Notes under the pieces: generated by a model
What the model saw: the letters and a program-made list of their open reading frames with translations, nothing else
Databases searched by the model: none
What the model was told of the DNA's origin: nothing
Part shown: positions 3,080 to 49,756 of the stretch, one piece after another
Numbering within the stretch: position 1 is the stretch's first letter
How the letters are laid out: every line of letters begins with the position of its first letter
Assembly: GCA_964653655.1 (NCBI GenBank)
Contig: CAZZHG010000009.1
Span: 11,301-75,300 of the forward strand
DNA: 64,000 nt
From: an uncultured Pseudobdellovibrionaceae bacterium
Lineage (GTDB): Bacteria; Bdellovibrionota; FAC87; UBA2466
Direction: 5' to 3'
Translations under genes and position numbers: made by a program

Positions 3080-3912
3080 GCCCAAAAGAAAAAAGTCTCG
3101 TGGTCGGCCGCGGCACGGAGTCGGAACAGATCGCCTACGCTCTCGATCTCCAGAGAAACGTCCTCATCGAAGGTCCGGTCGGCGTCGGAAAGACTTTTCT
3201 CGTTCAAGAGATTTTGAAGTCCCGCAAGCAAGGCTACGAGCGTATCGACGGGGATTCCCGTTATACGGAACAGAAGCTCACCGGCTGGTTCGATCCGCCG
3301 CTCGTGCTCAAGAAGGGCTATTCGAAGGACACGTTTCTCGACGGGCCGCTAGTTACCGCCATGCGGGAAGGGAAGATTCTCTTCATCAACGAGCTGAACC
3401 GGATGCCGGAAGCCGTCCAGAATATTTTGCTGCCCGCGATGGACGAACGGCGCGTGACGCTTCCGAAAATCGGCGTCATCACGGCGAAAAAAGGTTTCTC
3501 CGTAGTCGCCACCCAGAATCCGCGGGAGTTCACGGCGACTCATTCGCTTTCGGAAGCGCTGCTCGATCGCTTCGAGATGATCCGTCTCGACTACCAAACG
3601 GAAGCCGAGGAGCGCGAGATTCTGGAAGAGCAGGCGGGAGACGTCGACAAAGCTTCTCTCGGCAGAGCGCTTTACCTGGTTCGCGCGACCCGAAGCCACC
3701 CGGCCATCAAGCGGGGGGCCAGCATCCGGGCGGCGCTCGCCGTGTGTCAGCTCGTTGGAGCGGGAGTGGAGTTCCGCGCGGCGGTTTTCATGGCGCTTCC
3801 GGGGCGCATCGAGATGGTCGCCTCCGATCAGGACGCGCGCCAGATCCTCGCCGAGATCCTCGATAAGGGCGCGCCTTCCTCCTCGGCTGAAAAAAAAACT
3901 CAAAAAGCCTGA
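3076..3912 (+). CDS. MoxR-family AAA+ ATPase (short CbbQ/NorQ-sized form)
   Basis: Walker A GPVGVGKT, Walker B FINELNRMP, sensor region ATQNP. 278 aa. The ATG overlaps the kamE stop (ATGA at 3076-3079), indicating translational coupling. Confidence 0.75.
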   Translation: MSPKEKSLVVGRGTESEQIAYALDLQRNVLIEGPVGVGKTFLVQEILKSRKQGYERIDGDSRYTEQKLTGWFDPPLVLKKGYSKDTFLDGPLVTAMREGKILFINELNRMPEAVQNILLPAMDERRVTLPKIGVITAKKGFSVVATQNPREFTATHSLSEALLDRFEMIRLDYQTEAEEREILEEQAGDVDKASLGRALYLVRATRSHPAIKRGASIRAALAVCQLVGAGVEFRAAVFMALPGRIEMVASDQDARQILAEILDKGAPSSSAEKKTQKA

Positions 3913-4022
3913 CCGATAGGCTCTTTCCCTCCAAATTAGGCGCCGTTTTCCTTCCTCCGGAACTTTCGCAGGCTATCGACGAGGACGCGGGGGAATCCGC
4001 TCTGGGCGGCAAGACCGATCTG

Positions 4023-4787: not shown

Positions 4788-4873
4788 GCCTACTTGTGTT
4801 GACGTGCTGCGGCAATTTCGGCATAAACCGCCCGGGCCGATTATTAACCCATTGGCTTAAAGAGGTATCTCTC

Positions 4874-5854
4874 ATGCGCTCCCTTCTCCTTGGTCTTCTC
4901 GCCTTCGCGGGCGTTGCCCGCGCCGGCACCTTGGTTCTCCCGGTCAACGTTCAGACGGACCTGCCCTCCTGTGAAGGCACCGTCGAAACGAACCGCAACG
5001 GAAACCAGATCAACATCGTTTTCCGCAAAGTGAAGTTCTGCTCGAACTTCGACATCGTCTCCACGGGCTTCGGGATTCTCGATGCTGGTTACAAGGCGAA
5101 AAAGATTCCGGAAACGTCGACCGGCCTTCGCGGCGGCAGCTTCACGATTCCCCAGGCCTACATCGACCGCGGCCTGAACATCATCACGGTGGAAGTCCGC
5201 TCGAATAAGGGCGCCCACAGCGACACGATCAAGCTCGTGTTTGCGACGAATCCGGTCCAGCCGATCGTCCCGGTGATTCCGCAGCCGGTTCACGGAACGC
5301 TGCGCGGTTTCTGTGCGGACCACGACTATTCTAATTTCAAGGCCGCCAAGGCGTTTGCTTATTCGGGCTCCGGTCTCGGCAAGTTCGACTCGGAAGCCAC
5401 GGCTTGGGCGAGCGAGTACAATCGCACGCACCGTTGCAACACGATCGGCGAGTACAAGGCTCGGTTCACGGCGCTCTTCGACTACGGCTACAACGGCAGC
5501 TACCTCGGCAAGTTCACGTCGGAAGCCCGCACCTTCGCTCTCGGCTACGTCGAGACGACCGAAGTTCCGACGGTGGAGGCCTGGAAGGCTCTTTTCAGCG
5601 TGGTGCAGCCGTTCTTCTACGACGGCAAGTACCTCGGGCTTTTCACTTCGTCCGCGAGACAGCGGACGGACGAATGGGTTCGCCGCGGCACTTGCGGCAA
5701 CGCCCGGCTAATCGCCGCGATCAAGTCCGAGTTCACCCGGCATTTCAATTTCGCTTCCAGCAGCGCCGGTTTGAACCAGTTCACGACGCAAGCCCGCGCT
5801 TATGCGGCCGCGAAAGTCCGTAACATGACGAGCTGTTCGGACCTCATTCACTAA
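4874..5854 (+). CDS. Secreted protein of unknown function with four ~40-aa internal repeats (Y.GS.LGKF.SEA...)
   Basis: Signal peptide MRSLLLGLLAFAGVARA after RBS AAGAGGT. Repeats: YSGSGLGKFDSEATAWASEY / YNGSYLGKFTSEARTFALGY / YDGKYLGLFTSSARQRTDEW / SSSAGLNQFTTQARAYAAAK. Confidence 0.55.
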   Translation: MRSLLLGLLAFAGVARAGTLVLPVNVQTDLPSCEGTVETNRNGNQINIVFRKVKFCSNFDIVSTGFGILDAGYKAKKIPETSTGLRGGSFTIPQAYIDRGLNIITVEVRSNKGAHSDTIKLVFATNPVQPIVPVIPQPVHGTLRGFCADHDYSNFKAAKAFAYSGSGLGKFDSEATAWASEYNRTHRCNTIGEYKARFTALFDYGYNGSYLGKFTSEARTFALGYVETTEVPTVEAWKALFSVVQPFFYDGKYLGLFTSSARQRTDEWVRRGTCGNARLIAAIKSEFTRHFNFASSSAGLNQFTTQARAYAAAKVRNMTSCSDLIH

Positions 5855-5866
5855 GTTCGCAATCAG

Positions 5867-5905
5867 AAAGGCCCGGTTTCCTAAGCGAAGCCGGGCCTTT
5901 TTTTT
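5867..5905 (+). terminator. Rho-independent terminator: 10-bp GC stem (AAAGGCCCGG / CCGGGCCTTT) followed by a T8 run
   Basis: aaaggcccggtttcctaagcgaagccgggccttttttttc, located directly after the stop at 5854. Confidence 0.75.
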
Positions 5906-6072
5906 CGATAAGTGATAACAAATTTATACTAATTCATTTTCATCAAATTACGTAATATATTAATATTATTAGAATTAATTATAATATGTGATAACAAATT
6001 AGCATCTTTATTGGTTGGTGTCCGTGCTTGGACCCCGTTAAACTGAAAGCAGATGGAAACAGGGAGGCCAAT
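5906..6072. promoter_or_regulatory. AT-rich (about 25% GC) intergenic island holding two identical 13-bp direct repeats GTGATAACAAATT (5912-5924 and 5988-6000). Probable promoter/operator for the downstream lipoprotein/TIGR02147 cassette
   Basis: The base composition departs sharply from the rest of the window. The two exact 13-mers sit 76 bp apart. RBS GGGAGG lies at 6061-6066, before the ATG at 6073. Confidence 0.4.
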
Positions 6073-6948
6073 ATGAAAACGAATCTCAATGGGTTAGTGA
6101 ATCTCTTGATCCTTGGTCTGCTGGTGGTCGGGTTGTTCTTTGGCTGCGGCAAGAAGTCGGCGCTGGAGCCGGGAATGACCGGCCTGACTTTTCAGGGAAC
6201 CAAGCCCGGAGCCTTTGCCGCCGTGGCATCGGCCTTTGGTGTCGTATCCGCAGCCAACACCATCTCCGTGCGCGATCGCAACGGCAGCGAAGCCGGGGTT
6301 CTGACTCTCACCGAGGCGCGGGTCGCCCTTAAGGAGATAAAGTTCAAGAAATCCGGAGAAGACGCAGGCGAGGCCAAGTACCAAGGGCCTTACATTGTCG
6401 ATTTGTTGAGCGGCGTGGTCACTCCGGAGTTGCCGGCTATCCGGCTCGGCGCGGGCGACTACGAGCGCATCGAGCTTAAGCTGGCGAAGCTGGAAGACGG
6501 ACAAGTGGCGGACGGCGATGTCATGGCTCACAAGAGCATTTACCTCGCGGGAACCTATACGGGTAACACCTCGGCCGGCGCCGTCACCGATGCTCCGTTT
6601 ACGCTCACGTTCGAGCTGGATGACGAGTTCTTTTTGAGCGGCGACGAGGCTCTCGTCATTTCCGATGTCGAGCCGAATCCGATCATCGTCGCCTTCCGGC
6701 TCAATCGTTGGGTGGCGTTCGACGACTCCGAGATCAACGACAAGAATGTGGACTTCTCTCAGGTGGCGGTTTCGGGCGGAGAGATTTCCCTTTCCGATCA
6801 GTCTGGCGCCACGGACCAAAAGATCTGGGAAGTCATCCGTAAGGGCATCAAGGAATCGGCGGATTTCGGCAAGGATGACGACGACAATGGCGTACTGGAA
6901 TGCGCCGAGGACGAAGATGACGATTCGAAAGACAGCCGAGATTACTGA
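6073..6948 (+). CDS. Lipoprotein of unknown function with an acidic C-terminal tail (paralog A)
   Basis: Lipobox LFFGCG. Paralogous to the 7793-8659 product (LTEARVALKEIKFKKSGE vs LTDARLALKEIKFKRSGE). Asp/Glu-rich C terminus. Confidence 0.6.
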   Translation: MKTNLNGLVNLLILGLLVVGLFFGCGKKSALEPGMTGLTFQGTKPGAFAAVASAFGVVSAANTISVRDRNGSEAGVLTLTEARVALKEIKFKKSGEDAGEAKYQGPYIVDLLSGVVTPELPAIRLGAGDYERIELKLAKLEDGQVADGDVMAHKSIYLAGTYTGNTSAGAVTDAPFTLTFELDDEFFLSGDEALVISDVEPNPIIVAFRLNRWVAFDDSEINDKNVDFSQVAVSGGEISLSDQSGATDQKIWEVIRKGIKESADFGKDDDDNGVLECAEDEDDDSKDSRDY

Positions 6949-6957
6949 GGAGGCCGC

Positions 6958-7779
6958 ATGAAGGACCGGCGACCCGACATTTACGAGTACCACGACTACC
7001 GGACGTTCCTGCGAGAGTGGACGCAGTGGCTGAAATCCCGGCGCCAGGGCTATTCGCTGAGGGCCCTGGCCCGGGAAGCCGGTCTATCGTGCGCTTACCT
7101 TCCTCAGGTGCTTTCGGGAAAGCGCAAGCTGACGCAGAAAGCCCTGGCGAAGGTGATGGGAGCTTTGAAGTTACCTTCCCGAGAGCGCCATTACCTCGAG
7201 CTGCTCGTGCAAGCGGCCGAAGGATCGGCGACCGAGAGAGCCGAAGCGATGGAGCAGACCCAGCGGCTTCGCGCCTACCGGAAGGCGAATCCGAAGGAGA
7301 GCGAAGTGTATCGATACCTCACGCGATGGTTTTACGTGGCGCTGAAAGAGCTCGCTTCGGTGCCGGGCTTTCAAGCGGATCCGAGTTGGATCCTGTCGCG
7401 GATAAGAGGGGGCCTCAATCATCAGCAAGTCGCGGACGCCGTGACGTTCTTGACGGAAAACGGATTTCTTCGCACGGACCCCAATGGGACTATTCGTCCC
7501 GCCGAAAAGGACATCCGGTGCGTCGGCGAGGTGTTTCGCGCGGCATTGAGGCAATTTCATCATCAGATGATGGGCATTTCGCTTCAATCGCTGGACGAAT
7601 CGCCCGCGGGTTCCCATATTATTCTCGGACATACGACGGCCATTTCCTCGAAGCAGTTCGGCCGGGTGCGTGAAATTTTGCAAAATGCCCTACGGCAGAT
7701 CGAGCGCCTGGGGCAGGAGGAAAAGGGTCTGGACGCCGTCTACCATATCGGTCTTCTGGCGGCTCCGCTGACCAAGTGA
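6958..7779 (+). CDS. TIGR02147-family (Fsuc_0455-like) HTH-containing putative regulator
   Basis: N-terminal YRTFLREW...GYSLRALAREAGLS..YLPQVLSGKRKLT signature. RBS GAGGAGG. The family is known from Fibrobacter and Bdellovibrio-like genomes. Confidence 0.55.
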   Translation: MKDRRPDIYEYHDYRTFLREWTQWLKSRRQGYSLRALAREAGLSCAYLPQVLSGKRKLTQKALAKVMGALKLPSRERHYLELLVQAAEGSATERAEAMEQTQRLRAYRKANPKESEVYRYLTRWFYVALKELASVPGFQADPSWILSRIRGGLNHQQVADAVTFLTENGFLRTDPNGTIRPAEKDIRCVGEVFRAALRQFHHQMMGISLQSLDESPAGSHIILGHTTAISSKQFGRVREILQNALRQIERLGQEEKGLDAVYHIGLLAAPLTK

Positions 7780-7792
7780 TATTGGAGGTTCT

Positions 7793-8659
7793 ATGCTCGC
7801 GAAACTTTTTCGAGTGATATTGGTCTCCGTTCTGCTGTGGCTGCTCGCCAGTTGCGGCACCACCACGGGAAACTACGGAGTCGCGCTCGTCGTTCAGGGA
7901 ACGAAGCCCGGCTCGCTGGTCTCTGCCGTGAGTCGATTTCTGGGATTCGCCGCCGTAAGAGCTCCCACTTCCATCACGGCCGTGGACAAGAACGGGTCCG
8001 CCGGAGGAACGGTGACCCTCACTGACGCGCGGCTCGCCCTCAAGGAAATCAAGTTCAAGCGTTCGGGGGAGGGCACCGGCGACGTCAAGTACGCGGGGCC
8101 GTTCGTGGTGGACTTGCTCACAGATACCGTCACTCCTTCCTTCGAGACCATCGCGCTGTCCGCCGGGACGTACACTGAGTTCGAGATGAAACTGGCCAAG
8201 ATCGAAACCGGGCTCGAAGCGTCCGACTCGCTTCTCGGCAAGAGCATCTACCTCGAAGGCACTTACAGCGGGCCCACGGGCAACAGCGGGACCGTCACCG
8301 GCATCCCCTTCACGCTAGCGCTCGAGATCGACGAGGAGTTCGAGCTGCCGGCCGGCGCCAAGGGTTTCGACGTCGCCGACAACACTCTTTCCACCGTCAT
8401 CATCGCCTTTCGAATGGCGAAATGGTTCGCCTTCGACTCGCCGGTAAACGACAAGTCCGAGGATCTCTCGGACGTATTGGTAAGCAGCGGGCGAATCGAT
8501 CTGTCGGACGCCTCGCCGACCACGAACAAGAACATCTGGGAGGTAGTCCGCAATCTCGTCAAGGCCTCCGCCGACTTTGGAAAGGACGAGGACGGCAGCG
8601 GCAAGCTCGAAAGCGATGAAGACGAAGACGACGACGGTGAGGACGGCGACGACAACTAG
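7793..8659 (+). CDS. Lipoprotein of unknown function with an acidic C-terminal tail (paralog B)
   Basis: Lipobox LLASCG. Paralog of the 6073-6948 product along its whole length. C-terminal DEDEDDDGEDGDDN. RBS GGAGG. Confidence 0.6.
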   Translation: MLAKLFRVILVSVLLWLLASCGTTTGNYGVALVVQGTKPGSLVSAVSRFLGFAAVRAPTSITAVDKNGSAGGTVTLTDARLALKEIKFKRSGEGTGDVKYAGPFVVDLLTDTVTPSFETIALSAGTYTEFEMKLAKIETGLEASDSLLGKSIYLEGTYSGPTGNSGTVTGIPFTLALEIDEEFELPAGAKGFDVADNTLSTVIIAFRMAKWFAFDSPVNDKSEDLSDVLVSSGRIDLSDASPTTNKNIWEVVRNLVKASADFGKDEDGSGKLESDEDEDDDGEDGDDN

Positions 8660-48463: not shown

Positions 48464-49123
48464 CTAGGCTCGACGGGAGGGGTTTACGGCCAGGCCTATA
48501 CAGCCCTGGACCATCTGCAGGCGAAACTCGTCATGCTCCGCGTAAAGAGTCTCGGTCGTGGCGGTGACTATGCATCCGGTGATGAGCACTTGGATTTGTT
48601 TCGCGCGGCCTTTTAGATTGTCGGCCGCGAACACGCCGGCTTCGGCTCCTTGCTGAAGCAGCGCCGTGATGCGCTCGTGCCCCATGGTCACGAGCTCGGT
48701 GTTCAGCGCGCGCATCTTCGGATCCACTCCGCAGTAGTAGTAGAAAAGGTTCCATACGCGCTGGTGGGAGGGATACTCCTTCACCCACGCGATGGCGGAG
48801 TCGACGTAAGCGATGAGCCGCTCCATCGGCTCGTTCTTATCTTTAAAAGCTTGGATGGTGTACTGCTGATAGTTGAGGCGGATGTACTTCACCGCCATCT
48901 CGAACACTTCGTCTTTGTCTTTGAAGTAATGCTGAATGAGAGGGCGGCTGATCTTGCACGTCTTCGCGATGCTTTCGTACGTCGTGTTCTCGACCCCGAG
49001 GGAAATGTAATTCTTGATCGCGCCTTCGATGATCTGAATCATGCGTCTTTGCGCGCGGGACGGCAGCAGAGTGAAGAGCTGCGAGTAGACCGCGGCCTGG
49101 CGCTGATTAAGGCTCCGCTGCAT
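48464..49123 (-). CDS. TetR/AcrR-family transcriptional regulator
   Basis: N-terminal HTH (TTYESIAKTCKISRPLIQHYFKDKDEVF) typical of TetR. 219 aa. Confidence 0.7.
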   Translation of the reverse strand: MQRSLNQRQAAVYSQLFTLLPSRAQRRMIQIIEGAIKNYISLGVENTTYESIAKTCKISRPLIQHYFKDKDEVFEMAVKYIRLNYQQYTIQAFKDKNEPMERLIAYVDSAIAWVKEYPSHQRVWNLFYYYCGVDPKMRALNTELVTMGHERITALLQQGAEAGVFAADNLKGRAKQIQVLITGCIVTATTETLYAEHDEFRLQMVQGCIGLAVNPSRRA

Positions 49124-49205
49124 GTATTCAGTTTAATTCATCCGCCACCCACTTGAATACAAGTATCTGTTTTAATCGTTTAATTTCATATTCTTATCAA
49201 GATTA

Positions 49206-49223
49206 ATTTGCATTAATGCAAAT
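49206..49223. promoter_or_regulatory. Perfect 18-bp palindrome ATTTGCATTAATGCAAAT in an AT-rich divergent region. Candidate TetR operator
   Basis: Read directly. About 83 bp upstream of the tetR start, in a long (~630 bp) intergenic region. Confidence 0.45.
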
Positions 49224-49756
49224 GGTAATTTACACTTTTGAATATAGGGAATTGAGTTCGTAGCTGACCCGCAAGCGGGCCCTGAAGCGGAAGTTGACGT
49301 AAGTGGAAGCGGCAAAAAGGGGCGCGGGAAGTGACGATTGCTCGGGAGCTGTCGATTGAAAACGTGGAAGCGGAACGTTGGTTAATCGAAGGTCGGTCGA
49401 TAGCTCTCGAGCCACTGTCTTCTGAGAACGGGAAGGTTATCCGGCGGTACTGTGGAGTTTCTGACTCTCCTACCCCCCAAGGCATTCCAGAGTGCCGCCG
49501 GATAACCGGTCCTGAAATACCGGGGAAAAATGGGCTTTGAATTCGGAAATCCAAAGAAGACCACGCGATCCGCTGAAGAGATCGACGAGTTGAAGAACGA
49601 AGCTCTCGCCGACGAGCCCGTGCGCCGCCGGCGCGAAGAGTCCGCCAAAACGGACGGCAGGCCCCAGACGCCAAAGTCCGATGTAACCGAGCCGGAATCC
49701 AAGTAACCTCCTCTCAAGCCAAGCCCCTTAAAAGCCGATCCTGTAGGGGGGGATCC

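Follow-up and report, generated by a model that had tools for sequence, protein, structure and literature searches.

A lipoprotein-regulator-lipoprotein cassette downstream of two direct repeats

We analyzed a 64,000-nucleotide stretch of contig CAZZHG010000009.1 (positions 11,301 to 75,300; assembly GCA_964653655.1) from an uncultured Pseudobdellovibrionaceae bacterium, hereafter called the window, in which an AT-rich tract carrying two direct repeats lies upstream of three plus-strand genes. The first gene (6073..6948) encodes a 291-aa lipoprotein, LP1, the second (6958..7779) a 273-aa protein of the TIGR02147/DUF4423 family with an N-terminal XRE/Cro-type helix-turn-helix (HTH), and the third (7793..8659) a 288-aa lipoprotein, LP2, which is a paralogue of LP1. 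The genes are separated by only 9 bp (LP1 to regulator) and 13 bp (regulator to LP2), and no internal plus-strand terminators were found within the cassette, which together suggest an operon. A GGGAGG ribosome-binding site (6062..6067, plus strand) sits 5 nt ahead of the LP1 ATG, and AGGAGG or GGGAGG precedes the ATG in all orthologues. Upstream, the cassette is isolated as its own transcription unit by the intrinsic terminator (5865..5907, plus strand) of a secreted-protein gene (4868-5854). This terminator is a 16-bp GC-rich hairpin (5865-5902) followed by T8, with a predicted RNA folding energy of -27 kcal/mol (z = -6.4), and none of 200 shuffled sequences was equally stable.

Ahead of LP1 are two exact copies of the 13-mer GTGATAACAAATT on the plus strand, a distal one at 5912..5924 and a proximal one at 5988..6000, 76 bp apart from start to start, just as an earlier note on this DNA had reported, and the direct repeat can be extended to a 17-mer, ATAWGTGATAACAAATT. 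Each copy includes the heptamer TGATAAC (5913-5919 and 5989-5995). Relative to the transcription start site (TSS) predicted below, the distal copy would span -139 to -127 and the proximal copy -63 to -51. GC content is 11.1% in the 63-bp spacer between the copies (5925..5987), 15.8% across 5906-6000, and 29.9% across 5906-6072, in a window that is 59.6% GC as a whole. The earlier note was right to call this gap AT-rich, although neither its figure of about 25% GC for the gap nor its figure of above 60% GC for the host DNA matches the window. An exact direct repeat of at least 13 nt arose in 15 of 5000 composition-matched shuffles (0.3%).

Conservation of the paired cores

The closest relatives of the cassette are found in Bdellovibrionota metagenome-assembled genomes (MAGs; Pseudobdellovibrionaceae and Oligoflexia), and the lipoprotein-regulator-lipoprotein order occurs at loci from Pseudobdellovibrionaceae, Bdellovibrionales, Bdellovibrio sp. 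HCB-162, Bdellovibrio bacteriovorus, and Oligoflexia. We refer to seven of these loci as the window clade (the window, L002/L004, L041, L043, L044, L039, and L040; regulators 53-74% identical), with L039 and L040 showing LP1 and then the regulator, after which the contig ends. The cassette is also present in L045 and L046, with regulators 43-46% identical, and in L009, L010, L012, L023, and B. bacteriovorus, with regulators 37-41% identical, and more distant versions are found in L008, L014, L016, and L022.

Because unbiased k-mer enrichment was overwhelmed by words composed only of A and T, we searched these loci with a degenerate core. In 13 of 16 cassettes, the 280 bp ahead of LP1 contain two or more coding-strand TGATNA[CT] cores; in 2000 trials with shuffled sequence of the same local composition, the number of such cassettes averaged 0.43 and never exceeded 5. 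Upstream of LP1 there are 7.1 cores per kb, 16 times the 0.45 per kb seen in the remainder of these loci. The paired cores share the same orientation, and their first four bases, T, G, A, and T, are near-invariant. The fifth base, which precedes "AC" and an A-rich flank, is either A or T in window-clade loci; elsewhere it is C, which gives the palindrome GTGATCAC. As far as this comparison indicates, conservation covers the 7-bp core TGATNAC and not the full 13-mer, which the earlier note had treated as the functional unit.

The arrangement of the cores is conserved as well. They are spaced 74-77 bp apart in the seven window-clade loci and 94-96 bp apart in the five Bdellovibrio-clade loci, and the DNA between them is 9-22% GC irrespective of a genome GC content of 35-60%. 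Measured from the LP1 ATG, the proximal core lies at -81 to -87 in the window clade and at -128 to -133 in the Bdellovibrio clade, and the distal core lies at -156 to -163 in all seven window-clade loci. This geometry is kept across at least 13 loci whose proteins are 37-74% identical. Motif, orientation, spacing, AT-rich spacer, and the distance to the -10 hexamer described below are all conserved, and the suggestion that a regulator and a duplicated lipoprotein module lie under a repeat-containing control region is borne out by a conserved cassette with a cis-element tied to it.

Presence of the motif appears to track the regulator gene rather than the lipoprotein cargo. Among 21 loci where an LP homologue has no TIGR02147 gene beside it (Eisenbacteria, Neomarinimicrobiota, and others), two motif matches occur in only one, where they overlap one another and abut the start of the LP match, and an AT-rich island comparable relative to the GC content of its own genome was found in none of the 21. 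At L046:1700-4950, on the other hand, the regulator (43% identical) keeps three to four GTGATCA cores upstream, and the two lipoproteins on either side of it, of 346 and 341 aa, resemble each other (54% identity) but show no detectable relationship to the LP family. Despite the swapped cargo, the layout therefore persists. The motif also looks like a local signal and not that of a secretome regulon: no further copies of GTGATAACAAATT exist in the 64-kb window with up to two mismatches allowed, and TGATCAC is present between -50 and +1 in none of 140 attack-phase promoters of B. bacteriovorus HD100, contrary to the wider recurrence upstream of secretome genes that the earlier note had envisaged.

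In the distant MAG locus L008 (60% GC; regulator 24% identical), AT-rich blocks with repeated (T/C)GATAAA words are found upstream of the cassette at 1520-1760, along with a TTTCTGA block like that of the conserved -10 region.

Promoter position and the orthologous cassette of B. bacteriovorus HD100

The HD100 orthologues, which we traced via cluster member CAE81086 and genome CP160490, are Bd3721 (LP1), Bd3720 (regulator, 41% identical), and Bd3719 (LP2), in the same gene order. Bd3720 was identified as the regulator orthologue by synteny with the isocitrate dehydrogenase gene Bd3723 and by genome coordinates. The same evidence rejects Bd3700, the only DUF4423 protein named in the searchable literature, which is instead a paralogue with a growth-phase profile. 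Karunker et al. (2013) mapped an attack-phase TSS for Bd3721 at 3,597,991, supported by 337 5' reads and scored "FliA site: no", with ACTTGTGAACTTTTTGTGGAGAATGGCGATAAGTAAAGTATCCTGATTTCA as the sequence from -50 to +1 (PMC3627812 Table S2). When mapped onto locus L048, this TSS places a TATCCT hexamer at -12 to -7, the proximal TGATCAC at -57 to -51, and the distal core at -152 to -146, so that transcription starts 57 nt downstream of the proximal core and leaves a 5' untranslated region (UTR) of 76 nt. At the HD100 locus itself, the ATGATCAC cores are 95 bp apart with a third core, TTGATCAT, between them, and the spacer is mostly AT-rich. The HD100 cassette thus shares gene order, paired cores, and a -10 hexamer with that of the window and differs from it in the core (GATCAC as opposed to GATAAC), the spacing (95 as opposed to 76 bp), and the length of the 5' UTR (76 as opposed to about 22 nt).

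A TAWWCT hexamer follows the proximal TGAT at 49-50 nt in all seven window-clade loci and at 45-46 nt in all five Bdellovibrio-clade loci, and the sequence between the two is unconserved. In view of this fixed distance and of homology to the HD100 TSS, we place the core promoter of the window downstream of the AT-rich tract at about 6039..6051 on the plus strand, with a -10-like TAAACT at 6039-6044, a predicted TSS near A6051, and no convincing -35. TAAACT agrees with the consensus at 4 of 6 positions, the best -35 candidate, TTGGTG, agrees at 3 of 6, and a sigma-70 scan of 5700-6200 (TTGACA-16/18-TATAAT, at least 9 of 12 positions) returned no plus-strand match. The AT-rich island, which had been put forward as the promoter, is probably a conserved upstream regulatory region and not the core promoter.

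The two DUF4423 paralogues of HD100 differ in their protein profiles. Bd3720 is of low abundance, is highest in the attack and early phases, and drops about five-fold by 4-5 h into the growth phase (PMC12546842, Supplementary Data 1). Bd3700 shows the opposite pattern, rising about 400-fold (log10 3.9 to 6.6) at 3-4 h, in the growth phase (PMC12546842). The two proteins seem to act at different points in the predatory cycle. We found no discussion of Bd3719-Bd3721 in the searchable literature.

The TIGR02147/DUF4423 regulator

The product of the middle gene matches NCBIfam TIGR02147 at 153.3 bits (cut-off 50; E 8.4e-45), with residues 6-272 aligned to positions 2-270 of the 272-position model, and Pfam DUF4423 (PF14394) at 92.7 bits (gathering score 30) over residues 114-266; a Pfam HTH_3 match of 21.3 bits falls slightly below its cut-off of 23. 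It consists of an HTH at about residues 26-80, a helical linker, a winged-helix-like element at about 142-181, and two long C-terminal helices. Searching the PDB with the family profile retrieved a phage immunity repressor, ClgR, SinR, and C.BclI (E 1.5e-4 to 2e-3). The predicted structure (predicted local distance difference test score, pLDDT, 90.7) matched C.AhdI, ClgR, and HigA with Foldseek probabilities of 0.96-1.0, in the N-terminal domain only. The N-terminus is a bona fide XRE-type HTH, and no solved full-length structural analogue was found. In agreement with the earlier note, no function is described for TIGR02147/DUF4423 in the searchable literature, where DUF4423 is mentioned only in a table.

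The putative recognition helix of the regulator changes together with the core: S[CA][AG]YLP pairs with GAT[A/T]AC and A[ST]GYLP pairs with GATCAC, a covariation that is suggestive of a link between regulator and site.

The layout also invites comparison with local regulators of the XRE/Cro-CI type, including phage immunity repressors, SinR, ClgR, C.AhdI, and C.Esp1396I. These have the same N-terminal HTH fold, and, as at the present locus, the regulator gene stands beside its presumed target and two operator copies lie upstream of or near the promoter, which by analogy suggests cooperative binding and autoregulation. Unlike them, TIGR02147 proteins carry a DUF4423 extension of about 190 residues that is without a solved full-length analogue. 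The sites also differ: in place of adjacent palindromes, they are direct repeats 75-95 bp apart with extremely AT-rich DNA between them, and both lie upstream of the -35 position.

A second TIGR02147 paralogue is encoded in the Pseudobdellovibrionaceae MAG locus L002 (1457-2460), about 2.7 kb upstream of the cassette and divergent from a gene for a 399-aa secreted protein. The intergenic region between the two contains a 17-bp palindrome, GGTGACTTTAGGTCACC, which may be the paralogue's own operator with related GTGAC half-sites.

Features of the lipoproteins

LP1 and LP2 are 48% identical over 271 aa (E 6e-78), consistent with the earlier description of two paralogous lipoproteins flanking a TIGR02147 protein, and LP1 is identical to the public protein P0001. 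Each has a signal peptide that ends in a lipobox (LFFGC in LP1, with its cysteine at Cys25, and the canonical LLASC in LP2) whose Cys is invariant in 34 of 34 aligned relatives. Pfam and NCBIfam searches gave no model matching LP1 or LP2. DUF4382 (PF14321) weakly matches 22 of 34 LP relatives (best E 1e-5), and the HD100 orthologue is flagged "DUF4382 (weak)"; LP1 and LP2 themselves show no such match at E <= 1. The family comprises about 1,447 clusters at 50% identity (E <= 1e-3). A phylogeny of the paralogues had been proposed in the earlier note, and in our neighbor-joining tree LP1 and LP2 orthologues split inside each major clade, with the LP2 orthologues forming a subclade of their own within the window clade.

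The AlphaFold model of LP1 (pLDDT 84.5) is a beta-sandwich followed by a C-terminal helix-loop-helix (helix 246-262, loop, helix 284-289). Its best PDB match is the copper-binding periplasmic protein MbnP, which is marginal (E 4e-3; template modeling (TM) score 0.28-0.32), and no sequence relative has a solved structure. The acidic C-terminal tails described earlier are indeed present, but the C-termini are not merely poly-acidic: each tail begins with a canonical 12-residue EF-hand loop pattern, which all 34 family members examined carry in this position. The loop is DDDDNGVLECAE in LP1 (residues 268-279, window 6874-6909) and DEDGSGKLESDE in LP2 (residues 265-276, window 8585-8620), as defined by PROSITE PS00018 minus its final hydrophobic position, which is absent from both proteins. 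This loop suggests calcium binding by LP1 and LP2. DUF4382 lipoproteins and MbnP-like proteins are likewise secreted or lipid-anchored two-sheet beta-sandwiches of similar size, but the LP family differs from them in its invariant C-terminal EF-hand-type loop and in having no MbnH partner.

Interpretation of the paired cores

On balance, we favor the reading in which the AT-rich tract and its two same-orientation TGATNAC repeats form a conserved upstream regulatory region of the LP1-TIGR02147-LP2 operon that is bound by the regulator encoded within it. The operon would then encode two paralogous envelope lipoproteins, probably calcium-binding, together with their own regulator. We infer that this regulator is the likeliest binder of the cores because it has an XRE-type HTH, because the motif follows the regulator gene and is local, and because the recognition helix and the core change together.

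Under this reading, transcription would start about 22 nt ahead of the LP1 ATG from the TAAACT -10, which is without a good -35. The TIGR02147 protein would bind both cores (centers at about -57 and -133) through its HTH, probably as an oligomer, and the flexible AT-rich spacer could allow the two bound sites to cooperate by bending or looping. Binding would set the expression of the operon, such that the regulator would be autoregulated. As the sites lie upstream of a promoter without a -35, we favor activation or relief of silencing over simple repression.

Several observations weigh against this reading. The case for the TIGR02147 protein binding these sites is built by inference from co-occurrence and covariation, both of which are confounded by phylogeny, since there are essentially two clades and hence roughly one evolutionary event. 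The L014 and L016 cassettes, with regulators 28-30% identical, lack TGATNAC and have other repeats (TTCACAGCTGTGAA and TTTACAAAAGTAAA): in the AT-rich DNA ahead of the cassette, L014 carries TTCACAGCTGTGAA (3890-3920) and L016 carries TTTACAAAAAT and TTTACAAAAGT at a distance of about 94 bp (3735-3850), in both cases followed by TATTCT. The centers of the proximal sites are offset by about 5 bp, or half a helical turn, between the two clades, and for the operator of a dimeric HTH protein a 7-bp core is short, and it forms a palindrome only when it reads GTGATCAC. The TSS was measured in HD100 only, and the Bd3721 transcript was scored as monocistronic by Karunker et al. (PMC3627812), so that co-transcription of the regulator is a presumption.

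An alternative is that the cores are bound by a trans-encoded factor, such as a Fur-like metalloregulator, another global regulator, or a nucleoid protein attracted to AT-rich DNA, and the indirect nature of the link between regulator and site leaves some room for it. The window-clade TGATAAC cores, some of which are followed by TTTATC, resemble Fur-box half-sites in that GATAAC is close to the GATAAT hexamer of Fur, a FUR gene lies less than 5 kb away in L002, and the best structural match of the LP1 model, if a weak one, is a copper-binding protein. However, the orthologous sites of the Bdellovibrio and Oligoflexia loci read GTGATCAC, the form present in half of the loci, and are not GATAAT-like, and two direct copies 75-95 bp apart do not make an array of adjacent hexamers. 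Neither a GATAAT array nor the TGATAATNATTATCA palindrome of a Fur box is conserved in the orthologues. The motif has no further copies in the window, nor does TGATCAC occur between -50 and +1 of the remaining HD100 attack-phase promoters with a mapped start, and the motif accompanies the regulator gene even when the cargo is different. Finally, the MbnP match is weak (TM about 0.3, E 4e-3), and the LP family alignment contains no conserved His, Cys, or Met metal site. We regard a trans-encoded factor as unlikely.

Less likely still is that the repeats mark two tandem promoters arising from a duplicated module, or elements of an alternative sigma factor, with the AT-rich tract acting as an UP-element or easily melted DNA and no dedicated regulator involved. 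A TATAAT hexamer (5981-5986) does closely precede the proximal repeat, and L039 and L040 have similar ones, although TATAAT-like words are expected by chance at 11% GC, and the plus-strand sigma-70 scan was empty. A TCTGA-like sequence in the conserved -10 block may resemble that of RpoE-type promoters. TGATNAC is not known to fit any sigma factor -35 or -10 consensus. Another candidate is a FliA (sigma-28) promoter. The LP1 orthologue is attack-phase specific, as are the FliA promoters of Bdellovibrio, and Bdellovibrio-clade loci have GTGAA-N15-17-CCGATA (N16 in the candidate we considered) after the proximal site, similar to the TTAAG-N16-CCGATA of FliA. We rejected this candidate because FliA elements end about 7-9 nt ahead of the TSS, and the single published TSS of Bd3721, for which FliA was scored "no", is about 10 nt too far downstream (PMC3627812). 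Furthermore, the window clade has no CCGATA at the matching place, and in the window CCGATA is absent between the proximal repeat and the -10. By inspection, a DnaA box, an IHF site, and the -24/-12 elements of sigma-54 did not fit either, and none is conserved in the GATCAC clade.

That the repeat has no function and merely reflects chance or low complexity in an AT-rich remnant (of a decayed insertion, for instance, or of DNA gained by horizontal transfer) is very improbable: AT-rich DNA is prone to repeats, as the 0.3% of shuffles mentioned above illustrate, but the core, its orientation, its spacing, and its distances to the -10 and the ATG are conserved in at least 13 independent loci, the GC content of the flanking coding sequence is normal, and no Rfam family reached its gathering score, such that the remnant the earlier note had raised as an objection is contradicted by the conserved motif geometry.

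The TGATNAC pair is the first testable candidate binding site for a family that is present in multiple copies in predatory Bdellovibrio and relatives and has no known DNA target, signal, or function. The locus supplies a candidate operator and a defined operon as its target, and its orthologue, with a mapped attack-phase TSS, is in HD100, a strain that is genetically tractable. In kind, it is an ordinary local module of regulator, operator, and target, and its chief use is in making the regulator family experimentally approachable in B. bacteriovorus. It also recasts the flanking proteins as members of an uncharacterized lipoprotein family of about 1,400 clusters with an invariant EF-hand-type loop. 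More speculatively, and in our estimate doubtfully, TIGR02147/DUF4423 proteins could be dedicated activators of the Bdellovibrionota and Fibrobacter type, each wired to a neighboring pair of envelope lipoproteins. Such an activator would occupy two distant TGATNAC-type sites, wrap or loop the AT-rich tract, and switch on a promoter without a -35, thereby timing calcium-binding surface lipoproteins to the attack phase in predators. The lipoproteins might in turn feed an envelope or calcium signal back, with the cargo being swappable as in L046.

Other features of the window

A structured RNA or riboswitch in the gap upstream of LP1 was rejected, as the best match in an Rfam covariance-model scan of 5700-6300 scored 21.3 bits, far below the gathering score of 100. 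The secreted 328-aa protein of the upstream gene (4868-5854, with its stop at 5854 followed by the strong terminator described above) has no Pfam or NCBIfam match and is not kept beside the cassette in other genomes. Within it, a motif of the form G(K/S)(F/Y)LG.F(T/D)S.A...C is repeated about four times. The sole other strong AT-rich island in the window (49122-49268, 30% GC) lies upstream of a TetR-family gene on the minus strand (48464-49123). We rejected a tie between this island and the tract upstream of LP1, since it is a TetR-type promoter with no relation to TGATNAC and with a palindrome of its own, AATTTGCATTAATGCAAAT, which is the likely TetR operator.

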